64,000 bases of DNA from Candidatus Enterousia sp. (lineage in GTDB: Bacteria; Pseudomonadota; Alphaproteobacteria; Rs-D84): contig JAZRLB010000013.1 in the NCBI GenBank assembly GCA_045646625.1, positions 22,310 through 86,309 of the forward strand, read 5' to 3'. Each line of letters begins with the position of its first letter. The stretch's first letter is position 1. Below the pieces are notes generated by a model that made no database searches, had not been told where the DNA came from, and worked only from the letters and a program-made list of their open reading frames with translations. The translations under genes were made by a program, and so were the position numbers. Below, piece after piece: positions 10,040-20,968 of the stretch.

Positions 10040-10116
10040 TGGTGGGTGGTATTGGACTCGAACCAACGACCTTTACGATGTCAACGTAACGCTCTAGCCA
10101 ACTGAGCTAACCACCC
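10040..10116 (-). tRNA. tRNA-Val (anticodon GAC)
   Basis: Reverse complement GGGTGGTTAGCTCAGTTGGCTAGAGCG-TTACG-TTGACAT-CGTAA...GTTCGAGTCCAAT-ACCACCC-ACCA. Hand-folded cloverleaf with encoded CCA. Confidence 0.92.
10075..10116. repeat. attL-type direct repeat, equal to positions 1-42 of the intact tRNA-Val
   Basis: ACGATGTCAACGTAACGCTCTAGCCAACTGAGCTAACCACCC. Confidence 0.85.
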
Positions 10117-10665: not shown

Positions 10666-10886
10666 AGGTCATTGCGCATGAATTTGCAGTGTATGAAGAG
10701 GTATATAAAGAACTGACAGCGAGTTGTTTATATATCTTCGCGTTATGCATACATCTTATCAAGATACGCATGATAGTGAAAAACCGCTTTTGGGTATTGT
10801 GTGGTTCATCCCGCGGTCTCAAAAACGTGTATCAATACCAAAATCTGGTAAGTATATTTTTATACCCAAAACAAAATGGAGAAAAA

Positions 10887-11657
10887 ATGGAAAATCAAGA
10901 AGAAACAAAGATTGTAGAATGGTTAGAAAGTCTAGAATTTACTCATTCGATGTCTTTACAGTTACCATTTTGTATAAAAACACACAAGCTTGAAACAACA
11001 AAGACTTATATACGAAAATTTATGAAGGATTTTGAATTGGGGATTATTTATAAAAAGTACAATCAACAAAAAAATAATAAAATCAAAGATACAAATGACT
11101 GGCAAAGAAGACTTGTTGATTTTGTTGTGTTTTTTGAAAATCATGAAATTTATTATACACCATACCATTGTCATATATTGTTGAACATGAAAAAGAAAAA
11201 TGGTGTTATGTATTCTGAAGAAGAAATTCACTTAGCTTTGGAATACGCTAAGGAAAAATTCGCCAAAATGTTATCAAAAAAAGAAGGCTCTGTAACAGCT
11301 GAAGAGATAAAAAAGTTATTGGTGAATTATGATATCAGACAGATAAACCCTTTGGATAGCATTTTTCATTATGATATCAAAGAATTTGTTCAATGTAATA
11401 AGATTACTTCTATTGATAGATTAGAAGATGCTGTTACTTTGTTAGGTGTAACTAGACGTAAAAGGTCTGCAAAAGAACGGAAAAATCCAGAAAAAGAAGA
11501 AGTTGTAAAACCAGTCAAGAAGCCATTCTGCAGTGTGTTTAGGTTGTTGAAAAAAGCACTATGCCCAACGAAGCTTCTGAATGGCGTAGTTGGGCAGATG
11601 TGCCAATTATCAATTAGGTATTTTGAGTTTATAACGGAAAGATTATATAAAACCTAG
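10887..11657 (+). CDS. hypothetical protein (256 aa), possible HUH-type Rep/relaxase-like endonuclease
   Basis: Start chosen at MENQEE, with GGAG 7 nt upstream. YHCHILLN fits an HUH motif (H-hydrophobic-H plus hydrophobic run). FHYDIKEF about 60 aa downstream fits YxxK. Basic C-terminal tail. Confidence 0.5.
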   Translation: MENQEETKIVEWLESLEFTHSMSLQLPFCIKTHKLETTKTYIRKFMKDFELGIIYKKYNQQKNNKIKDTNDWQRRLVDFVVFFENHEIYYTPYHCHILLNMKKKNGVMYSEEEIHLALEYAKEKFAKMLSKKEGSVTAEEIKKLLVNYDIRQINPLDSIFHYDIKEFVQCNKITSIDRLEDAVTLLGVTRRKRSAKERKNPEKEEVVKPVKKPFCSVFRLLKKALCPTKLLNGVVGQMCQLSIRYFEFITERLYKT

Positions 11658-11976: not shown

Positions 11977-14900
11977 TTATTTCTTTCCCAAATTAGAAAA
12001 AGCAACCTGTACCAGCATATCTTTCAAGAAATCCAGTTTATCTTTGTCGGACAGAAGCTCTTTGAAAAATTCATCGTTTTTAGCGTGCCTATCCATCATT
12101 ACATCGGTGAACTTTGTATCAAATTGGGTATTGAAAGCAGTTTTGTCTTTGTTTTGTGCTGATATGACTAGGTATGGGTCTTTTCGCATATCGTCAATAA
12201 CCTGTTCCAACACTTTGTCTTCACCAGAAAAACTTGTGCCGAACCGTTCGTTGAACTTTTCGATAATGGCTGATAGGGGTTCGGTTTTCTTGGTGCTGCT
12301 GCCTGTTCCGCCTACTACAGGTTTAGCTTTCCCGACTTTGTCTTCCAGTACGATTGAACCCTCTTCTTGTTTGGTTTGTTTGATGTATTCCAGAACTAAC
12401 TTGTTTGATAAATCCACACGTTCTGATTTACCTTTTCTCAGACATTTGTGCAGGAACTTACCGTAAACAAAGAACTTCTGTAAATCTTTATCCATCAGTC
12501 GGACAATCTGAATAATAAAGTCGTACATTTTGATAAAGTTGCCCAGCGCCTTTCTGAATTTATCTTGGTCTTCTGGTGTTTTCACATTATATCTATCCAT
12601 GGCAGGTTTCAGAATGGATGATAATTTACCAAGGTCTTTTTCTGTTTCCTTGCCTGAATAATAAATGTCGGCAAACTGCTCAATTTCATTCGGATAACAT
12701 ATCTGCGCATCCATCAGAACATTTTGCAGTTTATACAATTCATTCGGGTCGATTTCCTTTTCAAGAATTGTCTGCTGGAAATACTTTTGGAATGAGTTTT
12801 TGATGTCTTCGCGTTCATTTACAAAGTCCAACACGAATGTATCAGTTTTGCCTTTGGTGGTGCGGTTCAATCGGGATAATGTCTGCACTGCTTTTACGTC
12901 ATTCAATTTCTTATCCACAAACATGGTATGCAGCAACGGTTCATCAAATCCCGTCTGATATTTGTCCGCCACAATCAGTATGTTGAAATCGTTTTTGAAG
13001 TATTCCGGCAACTGTGTTTCCTTGATGTGCGCACCGGTCTTGTCTACATTCAACATAGTTTCCGTATATGTTTCGTGCGCATCTTTCAATTCCCCAGAAA
13101 AAGCGACCAAAACATCCACACCCTTGATTTGGTTCTTTTCTATCTGCTTTTTGAATTCTTTTAGATAACGAACTGCATGCAATCTTGACGGGGTAACAAC
13201 CATTGCCTTTGCACGCCCATTGATTTTAGCTGCTGTAACATTCACAAAGTGGTTCAGCATAATGGTTGTCTTTTGTGAAATGTTTGTCGGATGCAGGGTT
13301 TGGAATTTGGTTATTTCCTTTGCACCCTTGGCAGATTCCAATTGCGGGTCATCTACGGTCTTTTTTATCAATTTGTAGTAAGTTTTGTATGTCGTATAGT
13401 TCTGCAACACGTCCAAGATAAATCCCTCTTCTATGGCCTGTTGCATTGAATATACGTGAAAGGCCTTGTATGTTCCGTCCGGCTGCCTTGTTCCAAAGCG
13501 GTTCAGTGTCTTTGCCTTTGGGGTCGCGGTAAATGCAAAGAAAGATAAATTATCATGCTGACCTTGGGATTTTAGCGTGTTTTCCAAGGTGTCCATTTCT
13601 TCATCTTGTTTTTCTTCGGTCTGTGCTTCTTGTTCAGCAAATTTGTTCAGTGTTTCTTCTTCTGTATCGCCTAAACCCTGAATAACACTTGCTGCAGCCT
13701 TACCGGATTGACTGCTGTGCCCCTCGTCCGCGATAATGGCAAAAGACCTGTTTTCAGATACCAATTCCTTGTAAACAATCGGGAACTTTTGGATAGTTGA
13801 AATAATAATTGCTTTCTTTTCGTTGATTGCATTCTTCAGCTGTTTTGAACCGTCTTTGATTGGCTCAACAAGGCCGGTTGTATGGTCAAATTGTGTAATC
13901 GTATCCTGCAGCTGTGAATCCAAAACACGTCTGTCTGTCAAAACGATAACCGAATTGAATATCTTCTCGTTCTGGTCATTATGCAGACTGGCCAAATGAT
14001 ATGCCAACCATGCAATAGAGTTTGATTTGCCACTACCCGCACTGTGCTGAATCAAATAGCTTTTTCCTGCCCCATTTTGCTTTACGTCATCCACCAATTT
14101 TGTAACAACATCCAACTGGTGATAGCGTGGGAAAATCATCGTTTCTTTTTCGATTGCCTTGGTCTTTTTGTTTCGTGTGATTTGGATGTGCAGATACTTT
14201 TGAATTATTTCCATCAACATATCTTTACATAACACTTTTTCCCACAAATAAGACGTTGTAAAGCCATCAGGGTTTGCTGGATTACCCTTGCCACCGATAT
14301 TGCCCGCACCATTTGAACCCTGATTGAACGGCAAGAAAAATGTCTTTACACCATCCAGTTTTGTTGTCATGTACGCTTCATACAGGTCAACCGCAAAGTG
14401 CACAAACACCCTGTTCTTGAATTCGAATATTGTGTCTTTGGAATTTCGGTCAAATTTGTATTGGTCGATTGCGTTTGATGTATCTTGGCCTGTGAATTGG
14501 TTTTTTAGCTCCATTGACACAACCGGTATACCGTTCAAGAATAAAACAATATCAATGCTGTTTTCATTGGATACCGAATAATGCAACTGGCGTGTGCAAT
14601 GCAGGATGTTTTTGTTATACAGTTCTACATCTGCTTCATTCATGCTGTTATCTGGCTTGAAATAACACAGCTTGAATTCAATTCCCCTGTCTTTGAATCC
14701 TGTGCGCAGAATTTGCAATAATCCCTTTGGCGCTTGCTTGATAACTGTGTGCACCCTGTCGATAAATACTTCTTCGGGATTTGTTGGATACGTCTGGGTA
14801 TAGCGTTCCCATGCCTTGGGTTGAGTGTTCTTTACAAATTCAATCAGCGTATCTTTATCCAGTGCCAATTTACGGTCAAATTTATCCGGATTACCCTTGG

Positions 14901-14979
14901 CATAGCCACCCATATCAGATGTCAAATATGCTTCTATTGCTGCTTCTAAATTGATTTCTTTCAGGTTATCGCCGGCCAT
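11977..14979 (-). CDS. hsdR: Type I restriction enzyme, R subunit
   Basis: 1000 aa. N-terminal PD-(D/E)xK-like nuclease segment (IDIVLFLNGIPVVSMELKN), SF2 helicase motifs (HSAGSGKS, IIADEGHSSQSG, TLSRLNR). Operon context with hsdM/hsdS. Confidence 0.93.
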   Translation of the reverse strand: MAGDNLKEINLEAAIEAYLTSDMGGYAKGNPDKFDRKLALDKDTLIEFVKNTQPKAWERYTQTYPTNPEEVFIDRVHTVIKQAPKGLLQILRTGFKDRGIEFKLCYFKPDNSMNEADVELYNKNILHCTRQLHYSVSNENSIDIVLFLNGIPVVSMELKNQFTGQDTSNAIDQYKFDRNSKDTIFEFKNRVFVHFAVDLYEAYMTTKLDGVKTFFLPFNQGSNGAGNIGGKGNPANPDGFTTSYLWEKVLCKDMLMEIIQKYLHIQITRNKKTKAIEKETMIFPRYHQLDVVTKLVDDVKQNGAGKSYLIQHSAGSGKSNSIAWLAYHLASLHNDQNEKIFNSVIVLTDRRVLDSQLQDTITQFDHTTGLVEPIKDGSKQLKNAINEKKAIIISTIQKFPIVYKELVSENRSFAIIADEGHSSQSGKAAASVIQGLGDTEEETLNKFAEQEAQTEEKQDEEMDTLENTLKSQGQHDNLSFFAFTATPKAKTLNRFGTRQPDGTYKAFHVYSMQQAIEEGFILDVLQNYTTYKTYYKLIKKTVDDPQLESAKGAKEITKFQTLHPTNISQKTTIMLNHFVNVTAAKINGRAKAMVVTPSRLHAVRYLKEFKKQIEKNQIKGVDVLVAFSGELKDAHETYTETMLNVDKTGAHIKETQLPEYFKNDFNILIVADKYQTGFDEPLLHTMFVDKKLNDVKAVQTLSRLNRTTKGKTDTFVLDFVNEREDIKNSFQKYFQQTILEKEIDPNELYKLQNVLMDAQICYPNEIEQFADIYYSGKETEKDLGKLSSILKPAMDRYNVKTPEDQDKFRKALGNFIKMYDFIIQIVRLMDKDLQKFFVYGKFLHKCLRKGKSERVDLSNKLVLEYIKQTKQEEGSIVLEDKVGKAKPVVGGTGSSTKKTEPLSAIIEKFNERFGTSFSGEDKVLEQVIDDMRKDPYLVISAQNKDKTAFNTQFDTKFTDVMMDRHAKNDEFFKELLSDKDKLDFLKDMLVQVAFSNLGKK

Positions 14980-15410
14980 TATAACACTCCTTTTATACCC
15001 AGTTCTATACGCATTTCTGATGCAAACGCCTCTACCTTGTCTGCGATTTGGTTTGACATTTCTTCACGTTGTTTCTTGGATTTCATTTTAGCATAAACAG
15101 AACAAATTTCAGTATCTAATGTATAATATTGTTTGTAAATCTTTTTGGATGCATATATCAGCATTTTGCCCTGTAATTCATTGAACATTTCTTTGCACTG
15201 TTTAGGCCATTCGTGGTCGCGACAGTATTTATCATGTTCCATCAACACATGACATGCTTGAATATATAATTCTTCGCGCTTTTGTTGAATATGTGCCTTG
15301 CGTTCGCGTTTGTATCGCAGGCAGTCCAACAACCACGTAAAACCGCCTGTCATCAGTGCCCCAATAACAACCCCAAACAACTGCGAAGAAAAGAAATCAT
15401 TCCACAACAT
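14979..15410 (-). CDS. small membrane-anchored protein of unknown function embedded in the Type I R-M operon
   Basis: 143 aa. N-terminal hydrophobic helix QLFGVVIGALMTGGFTWLL, then a charged helical region with a Cys/His cluster (CHVLMEHDKYCRDHEWPKQC). The start overlaps hsdS by 14 nt. The stop shares one nt with the hsdR ATG (TAATG). Confidence 0.7.
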   Translation of the reverse strand: MLWNDFFSSQLFGVVIGALMTGGFTWLLDCLRYKRERKAHIQQKREELYIQACHVLMEHDKYCRDHEWPKQCKEMFNELQGKMLIYASKKIYKQYYTLDTEICSVYAKMKSKKQREEMSNQIADKVEAFASEMRIELGIKGVL

Positions 15411-16668
15411 CGACTATTTCCTTTTTACCGGTAACACATTCGTATATCAGTGATTTTTTATATTCCGTCATCAGTTCTATCATACGCTCACGCTTTTCCA
15501 CAATGCCATCAATCCGCGCGCACTCTCCATCCAAATAATCCGCAATGGCTTGTTGTTCAGTCATGGATATTTTTGGCAGAGGTACTTCAAGTAAATCTTT
15601 TGCGTTCAATGCACTTCTAACTCCCTCCCCACCCATGTAGTTGAATATTTCTTGGTAATACATATTCATGTAATAGTAATAGAAGAAACGATTGTCTACT
15701 TGGGTATTCTTCAAAACAATATATGCGGGGGATACGATTCCTGTGTACGGAGATAACCCTACTCGACTTGTTTTTACGTTTTCCAAATCAATCAGTTTGA
15801 ACACCAATTGGTTTTCTTCTAGCACTTGGTAGCCTTCAAAACTTTCTGGTTGCAGCCCGTCTGCGTCATCTTTGTCTCGTTTTATTACCCCATTCATGGT
15901 AAGAGCAAGACGCTCATAATCACCTGCCTGTTTACCTGCAACTTGTTTGTTATTTTGGAAAACGCGTTTGGTTTTTATGATTTCCCAATGTTCCGGTATC
16001 TTGCCTATCCATTCAATGCCGCTGTCTTTCATTGGTGCATCGAGGTTCAGGCCACGTGTAACCGCCTCGGTAATAACTGATTTCTTGTATTCTTTCAGCT
16101 TTTCAATTATCTGGCGCTGCTTTTCCACAATGCCATCAATCCGCGCGCACTCTCCATCCAAATAATCCGCAATGGCTTGTTGTTCTGGCATAGATATGTT
16201 TGGCAAAGGGACTTCCAACAAATCTTTCGCATTCAAGGCGCTTCTAACTCCTTCTCCTCCCATGTAATTGAATATTTCCTGATAGTACATATTCATGTAA
16301 TAATAATAGAAGAAACGATTATCTGCTTGAGTATTTTTCAAAACGATATATGCGGGGGATACTATGCCCGTATAAGGAGATAGTCCTACTCGACTCGTTT
16401 TTACATTTTCCAAATCAATCAGCTTGAACACCAGTTGATTTTGTTCTAGTACTTGATATCCATCAAAGCTTTCTGGTTGTAAACCCTCAGCATCATCTTT
16501 ATTTCGTTTTATTACCCCATTCATGGTAAGAGCAAGACGTTCATAATCACCTGCCTGTTTACCTGCAACTTGTTTGTTATTTTGGAAAACGCGTTTGGTT
16601 TTTATGATTTCCCAATGTTCCGGTATCTTGCCTATCCATTCAATGCCGCTGTCTTTCATTTCTCTCAT
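15397..16668 (-). CDS. hsdS: Type I restriction enzyme, S (specificity) subunit with two near-identical target-recognition halves
   Basis: 423 aa. Residues 4-183 and 213-392 differ at 7 positions by my count. Each half ends in the conserved QQAIADYLDGECARIDGIVEK region. ATGA overlap with hsdM. Confidence 0.9.
   Translation of the reverse strand: MREMKDSGIEWIGKIPEHWEIIKTKRVFQNNKQVAGKQAGDYERLALTMNGVIKRNKDDAEGLQPESFDGYQVLEQNQLVFKLIDLENVKTSRVGLSPYTGIVSPAYIVLKNTQADNRFFYYYYMNMYYQEIFNYMGGEGVRSALNAKDLLEVPLPNISMPEQQAIADYLDGECARIDGIVEKQRQIIEKLKEYKKSVITEAVTRGLNLDAPMKDSGIEWIGKIPEHWEIIKTKRVFQNNKQVAGKQAGDYERLALTMNGVIKRDKDDADGLQPESFEGYQVLEENQLVFKLIDLENVKTSRVGLSPYTGIVSPAYIVLKNTQVDNRFFYYYYMNMYYQEIFNYMGGEGVRSALNAKDLLEVPLPKISMTEQQAIADYLDGECARIDGIVEKRERMIELMTEYKKSLIYECVTGKKEIVDVVE
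15493..16659. repeat. tandem direct duplication inside hsdS (two 540-nt units, 627-nt period)
   Basis: Units 15493-16032 and 16120-16659. The unit ends are nearly identical (about 150 nt with 1 mismatch, and about 66 nt identical). The middles diverge mostly at synonymous positions. Confidence 0.85.
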
Positions 16669-18386
16669 TTGGACACCCCTTTCAACAGTGCATCCAATTC
16701 AGATTCCAATGTCATTATTTCCGCCATAATGTCTTCGGATTTGCGTGGCGGGGTGTATTTATAGAAATAGCGCGTAAATGGTATTTCGTATCCGATTTTT
16801 GTCTTGGATTCATCTATCCACGCATCGGGGGCAAATGGCAAAACCTCGCGCTCAAAATACGTCTGAATATCTTCGGTCAATGGGATGTTTTCTGTGTCGC
16901 GTAACTTTGGGTCGGCAACCGGTTTACCTTTCTTCAAAACAATATCACCGTTTTCATCACGCAATGGACGTTCAACAACAACCTTGCGATATCCGAATTC
17001 ATCTGTATTGAATATTTTGCTGATTTCTGTTTCTTTGAATTCGCTGTATACACGTGTTATTTCTGCAATCGCACTTTCTGGAATGTCGTGTCTTTTGTCG
17101 CCTAATGCCTTTCTACGTTTTTCATACATCTCACTTGCATTGATAAGTATGACTTTGCCTTTACGCTGCGCAGGCTTTCTGGTTGATAATACCCAGATGT
17201 ATGTAGCAATGCCGGTGTTATAAAATATGTTGTTGGGCAGTCCGATAATCGCATCCAGATAATCATGTTCCAACAGGTATCTGCGTATTTCTGATGGGCC
17301 ACTGCCGGCATCGCCACTGAATAACGGCGAACCATTTTGAATAACACATGCCTTACCTTTATCCGGATTCAATTTGTTGATACAGATTTGCAGGAACAAC
17401 ATCTGACTGTCGCTGACCGGTGGCAGACCTGCACCAAAACGACCCGCAAACCCTAATTTTGCCTCGTTCTCAACGGCGGATTTTTCTTTCTTCCATTCAA
17501 TACCAAATGGTGGATTGGACAGAATGTACGAAAACTTGCTGTCTTCAAATTTATCATCCGCCAGTGTGTTGCCGTTCTTGATGTTGTCTGCGTTTTCACC
17601 CTTGATAAGCATGTCTGCCTTGCAGATTGCGAATGTCTTGTCGTTGATTTCTTGGCCATAGCATAACAACTTGGCATCCGGATTCATTTCTTTCAGATAT
17701 TCAGATGCCACAGACAACATTCCACCCGTTCCCACAGTCGGGTCATACATGGTTTTTACGGTTGTATCAGTCAAGATTTCATCATCGCTGTCAAACAAGA
17801 TATTTACCATCAACCGAATAACCTCTCGCGGGGTATAGTGTTGACCGGCTGCGCCATTATGTGCTTCTGAAAAACGTCTGATGATTTCTTCAAAGATATA
17901 CCCCATTTCCAGATTGCTTATCTTATCTGGGTGCAGGTCTGCTTTGGTTGAACAAAATTCTTGGATGATGATATATAACAGGTCTTTATCAACCAGTCGT
18001 GCAAGTTGCTTATCAAAGTCAAATTTTTCAATGATGTTTTGAACGTTTTCTGAAAAGCCCGCCAAATATGCCTTGAAATTACTTGCGATATTGTTTGGTG
18101 CATCCAACAGCTTTTCAAATGTAAATGGGCTGATGTTATAAAATTGAACCCCGCTGGCCTTTTTCAGCCTAACATCTATCAGTTCTTTGTTATCCAATCC
18201 TTGAACGGCCCTGTGTTCTTCTAAAACCTTGTCCTTGGTGTTGGCAAGTATACAATCAAAACGTTTTATCACCACAAATGGTAATATAACTTCGCCGTAT
18301 TCATGTGGTTCAAACGGGCCGACCAGTTTGTCTGCAATCGCCCAAATCAGATTTGCCTTTTCCTGTACGTTGGCACTCAAACTCAT
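16665..18386 (-). CDS. hsdM: Type I restriction enzyme, M subunit (N6-adenine DNA methyltransferase)
   Basis: 573 aa. AdoMet-binding region DPTVGTGGML and catalytic NPPF (ILSNPPFGIEW). Confidence 0.93.
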   Translation of the reverse strand: MSLSANVQEKANLIWAIADKLVGPFEPHEYGEVILPFVVIKRFDCILANTKDKVLEEHRAVQGLDNKELIDVRLKKASGVQFYNISPFTFEKLLDAPNNIASNFKAYLAGFSENVQNIIEKFDFDKQLARLVDKDLLYIIIQEFCSTKADLHPDKISNLEMGYIFEEIIRRFSEAHNGAAGQHYTPREVIRLMVNILFDSDDEILTDTTVKTMYDPTVGTGGMLSVASEYLKEMNPDAKLLCYGQEINDKTFAICKADMLIKGENADNIKNGNTLADDKFEDSKFSYILSNPPFGIEWKKEKSAVENEAKLGFAGRFGAGLPPVSDSQMLFLQICINKLNPDKGKACVIQNGSPLFSGDAGSGPSEIRRYLLEHDYLDAIIGLPNNIFYNTGIATYIWVLSTRKPAQRKGKVILINASEMYEKRRKALGDKRHDIPESAIAEITRVYSEFKETEISKIFNTDEFGYRKVVVERPLRDENGDIVLKKGKPVADPKLRDTENIPLTEDIQTYFEREVLPFAPDAWIDESKTKIGYEIPFTRYFYKYTPPRKSEDIMAEIMTLESELDALLKGVSK

Positions 18387-18501: not shown

Positions 18502-18544
18502 ACTTTATAAACTTCTTGACAACTTTATAAACTTTCTTTATAAT
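18502..18544 (+). promoter_or_regulatory. consensus sigma70 promoter for the XRE gene, interleaved with ACTTTATAAACTT direct repeats (candidate operator)
   Basis: TTGACA (18516-18521), 17 nt spacer, TATAAT (18539-18544). ACTTTATAAACTT at 18502-18514 and 18522-18534, plus a third partial copy CTTTATAAT at 18536-18544. Confidence 0.7.
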
Positions 18545-18577: not shown

Positions 18578-19114
18578 ATGGCTGGATACAGAACGCGATT
18601 TGGAAAATGGCTGACAGTATTTTGCGCTGAGCGTGGAATGTGGATTGCCGACTTATCTGAATATTTGGGGGTAGCTCCTGCAACGCTTTCTTTGATAATT
18701 TCTGGTCAGCATCCTATCCCAACATTTTTGCGTGAAAACATTCTATCGGCATTTTGTTTACGTGCCAATGAAGTAAAAGAATTGGACGCAGCAATACAAG
18801 AAACTAAAACCGAGGCTGTTATTGTGGAGAGGGAATTTGAACAATGTGTCATGGTTCAAACGCCAAATCACGCAAAATGGACAAAGGAAATGATGGAACT
18901 GATGGCAAAAAAGGTCAACAGCATGACCGAAGAAGAGTATGTAAGAATAAGAAATAGTTTGATGACGGTATCTGAAAAAACAGAAGAAGAAACAGCAATG
19001 AATTTCAAACAGATGCCAGACGATATATTACATACACACATTCGTAGACGTTATACAAAAAGACCGGATGTCGCCGACAGAATCATGAATTATATAAAGG
19101 AAAATATGGAATAA
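18578..19114 (+). CDS. XRE-family helix-turn-helix transcriptional regulator with an unknown C-terminal domain
   Basis: The N-terminal about 65 aa (FGKWLTVFCAERGMWIADLSEYLGVAPATLSLIISGQ) has an HTH_XRE pattern. AAAAGGA Shine-Dalgarno upstream. Confidence 0.75.
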   Translation: MAGYRTRFGKWLTVFCAERGMWIADLSEYLGVAPATLSLIISGQHPIPTFLRENILSAFCLRANEVKELDAAIQETKTEAVIVEREFEQCVMVQTPNHAKWTKEMMELMAKKVNSMTEEEYVRIRNSLMTVSEKTEEETAMNFKQMPDDILHTHIRRRYTKRPDVADRIMNYIKENME

Positions 19115-19243: not shown

Positions 19244-20545
19244 ATGGCAACCAAGGAAAACATTTCACAAACTTTAGTAAATAAAATCAATACAAAAATT
19301 GAAAAATGCCTACCTCAGGCAAATGTTATTTGGGACACAAAAACTAGCGGGTTCGGAATCCGTATTGGTAAAACAGGTGCAACATACATATTCAAATACA
19401 GAAACAAATGCAACCGTTGTCAAACCAAAACATTGGGCAAAACAAGCGATATGTCTGTAAATGAGGCGCGCGCCCTGCTGGACGAATTCAAACCAACAAT
19501 CAAATCTGACAGTCTGAGAATTTCCAAAAGGAACAGAAATTTTACAGTCAAAGATTTATGCGAAAAATATCAGGCAGAACATAGGGTTCGTGAAAGTACT
19601 AAAAGGGTAGACAAAAGCCGCATAATCCGACATGTCTTGCCAATCATAGGTGATATACGATTGTCAGATTTGACTACAGAAGATGTTCTGAAATTGCAGG
19701 CCGCGATTGCTACTGGCGACAAAAGAATTGTTATTGCAGGACATAAAAATCCAAATAATCCACATTCGTATACAAAGGTTACAGGTGGCACGGGATGTGC
19801 CAAGCGTGTTATGGAAATGTTGAACGCGATTTTGAATTTTGGTGAGGCGCATGACTTGCTTGAAAAAAATCCTATGAGTTCAAAAAAGTTTGAAAAAATC
19901 ATTCATAACAAAAAGGCGGCTGCATACCTTGATGAAGAATCTTTTGCACAATTTGGCTACGCAATAAGAAAATCTGAGTTGTCAAAAACCAAAGCTAGAA
20001 AAGATGCACAGGCAACAGACATCATAAAGCTATTGCTGTTGACTGGTTGTCGTAAAAGCGAGCTATTGGGGCTTACGTGGGATAGGGTGAATTTGAAACA
20101 ACAGTATTTCAATTTTGCACAAACCAAGACCACTGACGGCGAACAAATCAGGGTTTTTGGTTCTGCTGCGAAACGATTGTTAGAAGAAATGTATAAAAGC
20201 AAAAGTTCCAAATATCTGTTTCCAAGCATGGATAAAGACGGACAAGAAATACACCGGCAGGACTGTGGCAAAGCACTAAAAACAATTTGTGCATCTGTTG
20301 CTGGTCTGCAGGAAAAAATACATCCACACAGTTTACGGCATTCATTTGCGACCCAATGTAATGAATTGGATATCCCTGAATTGCAGATTGGTGGCTTATT
20401 AGGTCATAGCAACGGTGGTGTAACAGCGAAGTATACGCACAACAGAATGAAAAAATTGATAGCAAAGGCCGATATGGTGTCAGAAAGCATACAAAAACTA
20501 CTGAACAGCGGATATCAGAAAGCAGAAGCAGAAAATCTGAACTAA
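19244..20545 (+). CDS. int: tyrosine-type site-specific integrase (P4-like, with N-terminal arm-binding domain)
   Basis: N-terminus WDTKTSGFGIRIGKTGATYIFKYR (DUF4102-like). Catalytic region TGCRKSELLGLTW, HPHSLRHSFAT, LLGHSNGGVTAKYTH (R..H-x-x-R..Y). Confidence 0.92.
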   Translation: MATKENISQTLVNKINTKIEKCLPQANVIWDTKTSGFGIRIGKTGATYIFKYRNKCNRCQTKTLGKTSDMSVNEARALLDEFKPTIKSDSLRISKRNRNFTVKDLCEKYQAEHRVRESTKRVDKSRIIRHVLPIIGDIRLSDLTTEDVLKLQAAIATGDKRIVIAGHKNPNNPHSYTKVTGGTGCAKRVMEMLNAILNFGEAHDLLEKNPMSSKKFEKIIHNKKAAAYLDEESFAQFGYAIRKSELSKTKARKDAQATDIIKLLLLTGCRKSELLGLTWDRVNLKQQYFNFAQTKTTDGEQIRVFGSAAKRLLEEMYKSKSSKYLFPSMDKDGQEIHRQDCGKALKTICASVAGLQEKIHPHSLRHSFATQCNELDIPELQIGGLLGHSNGGVTAKYTHNRMKKLIAKADMVSESIQKLLNSGYQKAEAENLN

Positions 20546-20926: not shown

Positions 20927-20968
20927 ACGATGTCAACGTAACGCTCTAACCAACTGAGCTAACCACCC
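20927..20968 (-). pseudogene. attR-type repeat: orphan 5' fragment (positions 1-42) of tRNA-Val(GAC)
   Basis: ACGATGTCAACGTAACGCTCTAACCAACTGAGCTAACCACCC. One mismatch to 10075-10116. No 3' half follows. Confidence 0.85.

Follow-up and report, generated by a model that had tools for sequence, protein, structure and literature searches.

A family of small membrane-anchored proteins that accompanies restriction-modification genes, represented between hsdS and hsdR of Candidatus Enterousia

What does a small membrane protein do in the middle of a Type I restriction-modification (R-M) operon? The question is raised by a 64,000-nucleotide (nt) stretch of contig JAZRLB010000013.1 of Candidatus Enterousia sp., hereafter called the window, in which an open reading frame (ORF) for 143 amino acids (aa), labelled X throughout (window positions 14979-15410, minus strand), separates hsdS from hsdR. 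An earlier reading of these letters, made without database searches (the sequence-only reading), had described X as translationally coupled to both neighbours, and had proposed that it could be an effector guarded by the Type I complex, as PrrC is. The analysis that followed up this proposal gave a broader answer. Judged by its homologues, X is the founding member of a protein family not described before, whose members are small, consist of a membrane anchor and a helical bundle, and accompany R-M systems of several types. This makes X a good candidate for a new partner of restriction.

New immune mechanisms have come to light repeatedly in accessory genes nested within R-M operons, PrrC, DarTG2 and the "guilt by embedding" candidates among them. 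X joins an already long list of embedded candidates as one that is clean, testable and recurrent, and it stands out because the slot of PrrC is kept across deep divergence, because three other R-M types are accompanied, and because of its membrane anchor. With its compact size and confident fold, the family provides a handle on whether and how restriction couples to the cell membrane, and it also bears on the second-line functions carried by mobile R-M islands.

The protein family founded by X

Homologues of X were recovered in 64 clusters by single-sequence search, as 61 representatives by exhaustive phmmer search and in 159 clusters by profile search. Nearly all of them were 120-155 aa long and unannotated, and they came from gut and rumen metagenome bins of Candidatus Enterousia, other Alphaproteobacteria and Gastranaerophilales. 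The ratio of nonsynonymous to synonymous substitution rates (dN/dS) was 0.05-0.17 (Nei-Gojobori, pairs with unsaturated dS). The number of homologous clusters and these ratios identify X, on comparative grounds, as a real gene under purifying selection and not as a chance ORF.

No significant family match was obtained for the window protein in Pfam, NCBIfam, PADLOC or PHROGs, nor any match in a profile search of the Protein Data Bank (PDB) with its sequence, in agreement with the earlier statement that no family could be recognised. The library scans covered the window protein and all 60 members of the alignment. Among the latter only scattered weak matches were observed (LapA_dom, PetG, holins, phrog_36022 and PDC-S67), and the three for which coordinates were shown (LapA_dom, the holin phrog_1350 and PDC-S67) all fell on the transmembrane (TM) helix. 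For its part, the hidden Markov model of the family recognised the window protein with 183.6 bits (E 2e-55), every family motif being present. The family was defined as proteins of 120-155 aa that are encoded on mobile islands, within or beside R-M modules, and in which one N-terminal Gly-rich TM helix is succeeded by a basic flank, the motif K-R-E-E-x-Y, a turn with Y-A-S and, at the C terminus, R-K-E-L-G-I-K-D; the family alignment showed the same order. The window gene has such a location, in an hsd operon that is flanked by att repeats, with an integrase gene next to it.

A single hydrophobic segment was present in every member. The AlphaFold2 (AF2) model of X, built with the family alignment (pLDDT 92.9, pTM 0.75), contained helices at residues 3-64, 70-86, 89-108 and 112-136, the first comprising the TM segment plus a stalk and the other three folding back onto the stalk to complete a four-helix bundle. 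The one N-terminal hydrophobic helix and the helical remainder of the sequence-only reading were thus borne out. In 133 of the 160 members the TM helix carried a Gly/small-xxx-small or GxxxG motif, and the only invariant or near-invariant residues of the family were G17 (invariant in the alignment), E46 and Y49 (each conserved in at least 90% of members). The C-terminal flank of the TM helix was more positive than the N-terminal one in 148 of 160 members, which argues for an N-out/C-in topology. On the alignment and the model, X is a 16-kDa bitopic inner-membrane protein, with a short N terminus predicted outside and the bundle in the cytoplasm. The Gly-zipper of its TM helix probably drives oligomerisation. 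Given the helix lengths in the model, the K-R-E-E-x-Y, Y-A-S and R-K-E-L-G-I-K-D motifs are expected to be grouped at the end of the bundle nearest the membrane; the tail consensus RKELGIKD was retained down to ~25% identity.

Structural searches with Foldseek returned only generic four-helix bundles from the PDB (best E 0.59, TM-score at most 0.46) and a few uncharacterised proteins of gut Siphoviridae from BFVD (best E 0.035; best TM-score 0.68, at E 0.054). The best PDB neighbours were the sensor domains of NarX/NarQ, McpN and QseE, in which a TM helix likewise runs straight into a four-helix bundle. These matches were non-significant (E ~0.6 or higher), and the bundles concerned are periplasmic and lie between two TM helices, whereas that of X is cytoplasmic and is accompanied by no second TM helix or output domain.

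The Cys/His cluster to which attention had been drawn is present in X, but C53, H59 and C72 were invariant only in the close subfamily (at least 49% identity) and were absent from more distant members. A zinc or other metal site as a family trait was rejected for that reason. A HEPN-like RNase was also considered and rejected, as the family alignment showed no conserved Arg/His motif of the form R-x(4-6)-H.

Genomic company and mobility of X

The genes flanking X are true Type I subunits as judged by Pfam, PADLOC and NCBIfam. Thus, HsdM matched the PADLOC model MTase_I with 835 bits and HsdS matched Specificity_I with 312 bits, while HsdR matched HSDR_N/ResIII/SWI2_SNF2/T1R_D3; the nearest solved relatives, though only distant ones, were the subunits of EcoR124I (Type IC). 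X matched none of the Type I models (HsdM, HsdS and HsdR domains) that its three neighbours match strongly. Successive genes overlap by 4 nt (hsdM/hsdS, ATGA, 16665-16668), 14 nt (hsdS/X, 15397-15410, X starting with ATG) and 1 nt (X/hsdR, TAATG, 14977-14981), exactly as had been read from the letters, and through the last of these hsdR translation is coupled to the termination of X. No promoter- or terminator-like signals above chance were detected between the four cistrons, so that hsdM-hsdS-X-hsdR most likely forms one operon. An internal promoter for X-hsdR was rejected, since the promoter-like matches in the region did not exceed the shuffled expectation.

Loci of the family were searched for with subfamily alignments, and 20 distinct contexts were examined. 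The sequence-only reading had asked whether homologues recur between hsdS and hsdR and whether they keep company with R-M or defence genes, and both proved to be the case. R-M genes were found within 6.5 kb of X in 18 of the 20 contexts, a very strong association given that such genes make up a few percent of a genome at most. The hsdS-X-hsdR slot was occupied by six sequence groups, namely the group of the window (loci L013-L018) and those of P0049 (L001-4, L025), P0122 (L036-39), P0132 (L044-47), P0165 (L048-52) and P0171 (L053-57). In the last four groups the X proteins are 26-37% identical to that of the window (some of them 26-30%), and the hsdS stop and X start codons overlap by one base; HsdR, measured in the P0122 and P0132 loci only, is 38-50% identical.

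Three other lineages of X lie directly upstream of, and co-oriented with, R-M genes that are not of Type I: an MmeI-like enzyme of 1042 aa (gap of 83 nt), a Type III pair of N6_N4-MTase and ResIII (mod-res; 60 nt) and an N6_Mtase/Eco57I plus D12-MTase system (92 nt). In nine additional contexts R-M genes were located no farther than 6.5 kb from X, and other defence genes were often close by. The two contexts lacking an R-M gene were L027 and L007, the contig of the latter ending 1.3 kb away. Defence neighbours included CBASS, GmrSD, OLD/AAA_21 (OLD-type ATPases), HEPN_AbiU2, HipA and T5orf172. All contexts were integrative islands or transposon cargo, and no lysis cassette was found beside X in any of the 20. 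The family was not found in INPHARED phages or PLSDB plasmids when three members were used as queries, nor in IMG/VR with three subfamily pattern sets, and a phage or plasmid origin was rejected on these results. A metagenome scan for close hsdR relatives devoid of X yielded distant matches only.

Comparison of the window with L013 and L015 revealed a 540-bp segment (Table 1) in which the DNA is 97-100% identical, as opposed to ~60% on both sides; outside it, the proteins are 63% (HsdR) and 77% (HsdM) identical. This difference indicates a recent exchange of the X cassette between divergent hsd operons. Stand-alone loci shared homology with one another over X and up to ~350 nt upstream, ending at the X stop codon, and in that upstream stretch -35/-10-like hexamers and a Shine-Dalgarno sequence were present. 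The possibility that these copies are remnants of decayed hsd operons was rejected, as no flanking remnants of hsdS or hsdR were found. Identity to the window X was 60% for the Type I-linked P0049 protein, 64% for the Type III-linked one and 60% for the MmeI-linked one; by this measure, similarity among X proteins does not track the type of the neighbouring R-M system.

Three types of TM helix were found recombined with near-identical bundles, and the reverse was also seen. In six contexts X formed tandem paralogous pairs with overlapping codons: the small ORF preceding X in L001-4/L025, L002, L022, L024 and L027, and the L012 pair, turned out to be family members (hmmsearch E 1e-16 to 1e-46). 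The two members of a pair always had TM helices of different types, a combination suggestive of hetero-oligomers or split specificities. Such module shuffling and heterotypic duplication are expected of arms-race genes. From these patterns of linkage and exchange, X is best described as an R-M-linked mobile accessory and not as a dedicated Type I subunit.

Candidate roles and relation to known systems

The conserved coupling of X in Type I operons and its adjacency to four R-M types argue for a functional tie to restriction. Our preferred reading, which we hold tentatively and at somewhat less than even confidence, is that X forms a second layer of defence that is generic and resides in the membrane, acting by abortive infection or exclusion. 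X would be co-selected and co-expressed with restriction with no need to recognise one particular restriction enzyme, and it would act at the level of the membrane. Its family is one of accessory genes whose movement and expression are shared with R-M modules.

Several observations weigh against this proposal. The scans of Pfam, NCBIfam, PADLOC, PHROGs and the PDB gave no match of X to any characterised defence protein. With the PADLOC v2 models nothing was matched beyond a 35-residue TM segment: PDC-S67 was hit by 3 of 60 members, with no full-length match to its 203-position profile, and in the one alignment inspected (P0108) residues 1-35 were paired with profile positions 1-35 (E 0.002). 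The Foldseek results point to a generic four-helix bundle, and neither a catalytic nor a pore-forming signature was recognisable in the fold. The tight coupling across deep divergence would equally fit a true enzyme subunit or a regulator, the company of defence islands is circumstantial for a defence role, and the 20 contexts derive mostly from gut metagenome bins of few lineages.

The lactococcal proteins Sie2009 and AbiP and the class III holins are single-TM superinfection-exclusion or abortive-infection proteins and holins. We take them to resemble X in being small and diversified, in having an N-terminal anchor with a soluble helical remainder, and in residing on mobile elements. X differs from them in that no sequence match or significant structural match was obtained. 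PHROG holin matches were seen in 4 of 60 members (E at least 4e-5) and probably cover the TM region only, as in the one alignment shown (window residues 12-48). Unlike holins, X lies outside lysis cassettes and prophage immunity regions and was not found in the phage collections.

X could alternatively be a non-toxic R-M accessory, acting either as a membrane tether or as a regulator. A tether would keep restriction complexes at the entry site of foreign DNA, the inner membrane; EcoKI reportedly associates with the cytoplasmic membrane. A regulator would limit restriction, or HsdR translation via the TAATG coupling, while the island establishes itself in a new host, a role that would suit the carriage of these modules on integrative islands and transposons, for which entry into naive hosts is a necessity, as well as the dependence of HsdR translation on X termination. 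In nine contexts X stands immediately 5' of a restriction gene or of a whole R-M unit, as do the genes for controller (C) proteins. These genes are likewise small, and in mobile R-M units the restriction gene follows directly in the same transcript. C proteins, however, are soluble helix-turn-helix (HTH) transcription factors, whereas X is membrane-anchored, matches no HTH family and has no DNA-binding feature. Either form of accessory would have to recognise four mechanistically different enzyme types, and stand-alone copies occur apart from, or convergent to, any R-M gene; heterotypic tandem pairs and module shuffling are hard to square with a housekeeping tether. We regard this explanation as unlikely, although it is the one that fares best after our preferred reading.

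A lower probability still is assigned to the arrangement that had been proposed originally, in which X would be latent on the Type I complex and freed as a membrane-damaging effector by phage anti-restriction attack. PrrC, the standard example of an R-M "guardian", is an accessory that restriction chemistry does not require (PMC1484252, PMC12707154). In the E. coli prr locus it occupies the same position as X, within a Type IC-like gene order, and EcoprrI is itself Type IC (PMC1484252, PMC12707154), the type to which the nearest solved relatives of the window Hsd proteins belong. The retention of this slot in six divergent lineages is in keeping with such a guard, the overlapping codons favour co-assembly, and a Gly-zipper TM helix would suit an oligomerising membrane effector. 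Nevertheless, the two proteins differ in build. PrrC is soluble, has ~400 aa and combines an NTPase domain of the ABC type with an RNase domain at its C terminus, whereas X consists of a membrane anchor and a four-helix bundle. An ABC-ATPase-like NTPase domain (Walker A/B) of the PrrC/RloC kind was not found in X with Pfam, NCBIfam or PADLOC, and neither R-x(4-6)-H nor a conserved His was present as in their C-terminal ribonuclease domain (HEPN-like, Arg/His). Of the PrrC/RloC features, embedding between hsdS and hsdR is shared by X, for which the slot is not exclusive.

The distribution of X also speaks against a guard of this type. Whereas the linkage of prrC to the R-M locus that silences it is invariable (PMC3458546), and prrC is seen almost only inside Type I systems (bioRxiv 10.1101/2024.01.29.577857), copies of X were also found on their own and next to systems of Type IIG, Type III and Type II. 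Near-identical X proteins are paired with HsdR proteins only 63% identical, and X similarity is not a function of R-M type. Autonomy, exchange across divergent HsdR and the lack of co-variation with R-M type thus speak against a lock-and-key relationship like that of PrrC and EcoprrI; from the proposal of a PrrC-like Type I partner, the shared slot stood and the confinement to Type I did not.

A bolder version, to which we give the same low credence, makes X a universal membrane partner of restriction, either a generic guard of Type I, IIG and III enzymes or a docking subunit. As a guard it would sense failure or inhibition of these enzymes and then collapse the membrane, and as a docking subunit it would place restriction complexes where DNA enters. 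If true, this would be a new principle, in which an adaptor that is small, exchangeable and subject to diversification ties restriction to the membrane.

The hsdS-hsdR junction has been described as a hotspot at which defence systems become embedded (PMC12255303; bioRxiv 10.1101/2024.01.29.577857), and the systems identified by "guilt by embedding" include DarTG2 in enteropathogenic E. coli (PMC12255303) and the PADLOC PDC candidates (bioRxiv 10.1101/2024.01.29.577857). Like X, these are unrelated cargo inserted between hsd genes, but X differs from most of them in being a single small membrane protein translationally coupled at both sides. Accessory defence genes nested in hsd operons are therefore an established concept, in which X is a new family, since it fails the domain-level tests for PrrC, C proteins, holins and PADLOC candidates. 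What is new about it is that it is membrane-anchored, linked to several R-M types and exchanged as a cassette; a literature search found no membrane-anchored R-M partner.

The existence of this hotspot (PMC12255303) raises the question of whether X is a hitch-hiking island gene with no functional tie to restriction. Its product would then be a membrane protein in the service of the mobile element itself, with a part, for instance, in stabilisation or in excluding related elements, and its presence at the hsdS-hsdR recombination hotspot and at island ends would be incidental. In keeping with this, every copy of X lies on an integrative island or in transposon cargo, and X moves alone as a cassette. 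However, the slot and the overlapping codons have been kept independently at 26-30% identity, and four R-M types are accompanied, which is far beyond hotspot chance; besides, hsd-X is the sole recognisable defence cargo of the window island. We consider a mere passenger as improbable as the guard, and even a passenger would document a cassette-exchange hotspot at the hsdS/hsdR junction. Finally, a non-functional spacer ORF, translated only to pass ribosomes on from hsdS to hsdR, would account for the coupled stop and start codons at both ends of X, but it is effectively refuted by the strong purifying selection on the protein, by its conserved motifs and fold, and by the own expression signals of the stand-alone copies.

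The island in the window and additional observations

By its boundaries and gene content, the operon sits on a ~10.9-kb tRNA-Val integrative island of a Candidatus Enterousia-like alphaproteobacterium, extending from ~10.1 to 21.0 kb of the window and delimited by a 42-bp direct repeat of the 5' half of the tRNA-Val gene (Table 1). The island contains orf322, hsdR-X-hsdS-hsdM, a gene with a weak HTH match, an integrase gene and a 77-aa Xis-like gene. No recognisable defence cargo other than hsd-X was found; orf322 and a 70-aa ORF also lie inside the att boundaries. The same island, 86-99% identical, was present in four other Enterousia-like genomes (L014, L016-18). The integrase-like gene gave tblastn matches to Phage_integrase-annotated genes in L001, L008 and L042, and is 87-96% identical in L014 and L016-18.

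Table 1. Coordinates of X, its operon and island in the window, and of tandem X pairs in related loci
Feature	Sequence	Position	Strand	Remarks
X	window	14979-15410	-	membrane-anchored four-helix-bundle protein, 143 aa; stop codon included; from ORF and translation
X Shine-Dalgarno AAGGA	window	15419-15423	-	8 nt before ATG, within hsdS 3' end; read from sequence
TM helix with Gly-zipper G13xxxG17xxxxG22G23	window	15324-15383	-	residues ~10-29; only hydrophobic 19-mer
Basic juxtamembrane stretch RYKRERK and motif K-R-E-E-x-Y	window	15264-15323	-	residues 30-49
Cytoplasmic stalk and four-helix bundle (predicted)	window	15003-15323	-	residues 30-136; AF2
C-terminal tail ELGIK(D/G)	window	14982-15005	-	residues 136-143, after last helix; conserved
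Recently exchanged cassette, 540 bp	window	14945-15484	-	last ~85 nt of hsdS, entire X, first ~35 nt of hsdR
hsdM	window	16665-18386	-	ATGA overlap with hsdS
hsdS	window	15397-16668	-	final 14 nt shared with X start
hsdR	window	11977-14979	-	start codon shares one base with X stop codon
hsdR Shine-Dalgarno AAGGAG	window	14987-14992	-	within X
tRNA-Val(gac)	window	10040-10116	-
att repeat, copy 1	window	10075-10116		inside tRNA-Val
att repeat, copy 2	window	20927-20968		42 bp, one mismatch; other island end
178-aa gene	window	18578-19114	+	weak sub-threshold HTH match; divergent from hsdM
Tyrosine integrase-like gene	window	19244-20545	+	by similarity to genes with Pfam Phage_integrase matches in related loci
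Tandem X pair	L001	7559-8432
Tandem X pair	L002	7598-8432
Tandem X pair	L012	8001-8829
Tandem X pair	L022	2552-3428
Tandem X pair	L024	9557-10435
Tandem X pair	L027	745-1619

Upstream of the 178-aa gene a perfect TTGACA-17-TATAAT sigma-70 consensus was observed at 18516-18544 (plus strand); by analogy, its product may be an island regulator in the manner of RptR or BrxR. At the other side of the operon, orf322 (10689-11657, plus strand) is convergent to hsdR and showed no family match; it is 98-99% identical in L014 and L017 and 57-58% identical in L016 and L018. Within HsdS, the halves formed by aa 4-204 and 213-413 are 91.5% identical (88% in DNA), so that the two target-recognition domains are near-duplicates. 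This predicts a symmetric recognition sequence and suggests a recent duplication or gene conversion as the source of the repeat.

Three observations were made in the related loci. At L019 (10689-13008), a Type II R-M system is preceded by X, an unknown gene for 206 aa, a Peptidase_M78 (IrrE-like) gene and a PF14350 "Beta_protein" gene, in that order, and this stretch is a possible further cassette of the defence type. Between hsdM and hsdS, the operons of L001 (5626-6267), L003 (2135-2776) and L002 (5674-6351) encode another protein, unrelated to X and 213-225 aa long, whose N-terminal hydrophobic segment is probably a TM anchor. Its members were rejected as relatives of X (hhalign probability <1%). 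Some Type I operons accordingly hold up to three apparently membrane-anchored small proteins. Lastly, a ~97-nt tRNA-Asn(GTT) fragment is repeated in L022 (67-163, 2109-2205, 6995-7094 and 11194-11291), L024 (8618-8714, 9114-9265 and 15565-15664), L020 (15769-15920) and L001 (14795-14894). These fragments are probably att scars of several tandemly integrated islands, bounding variable R-M cargo beside X.

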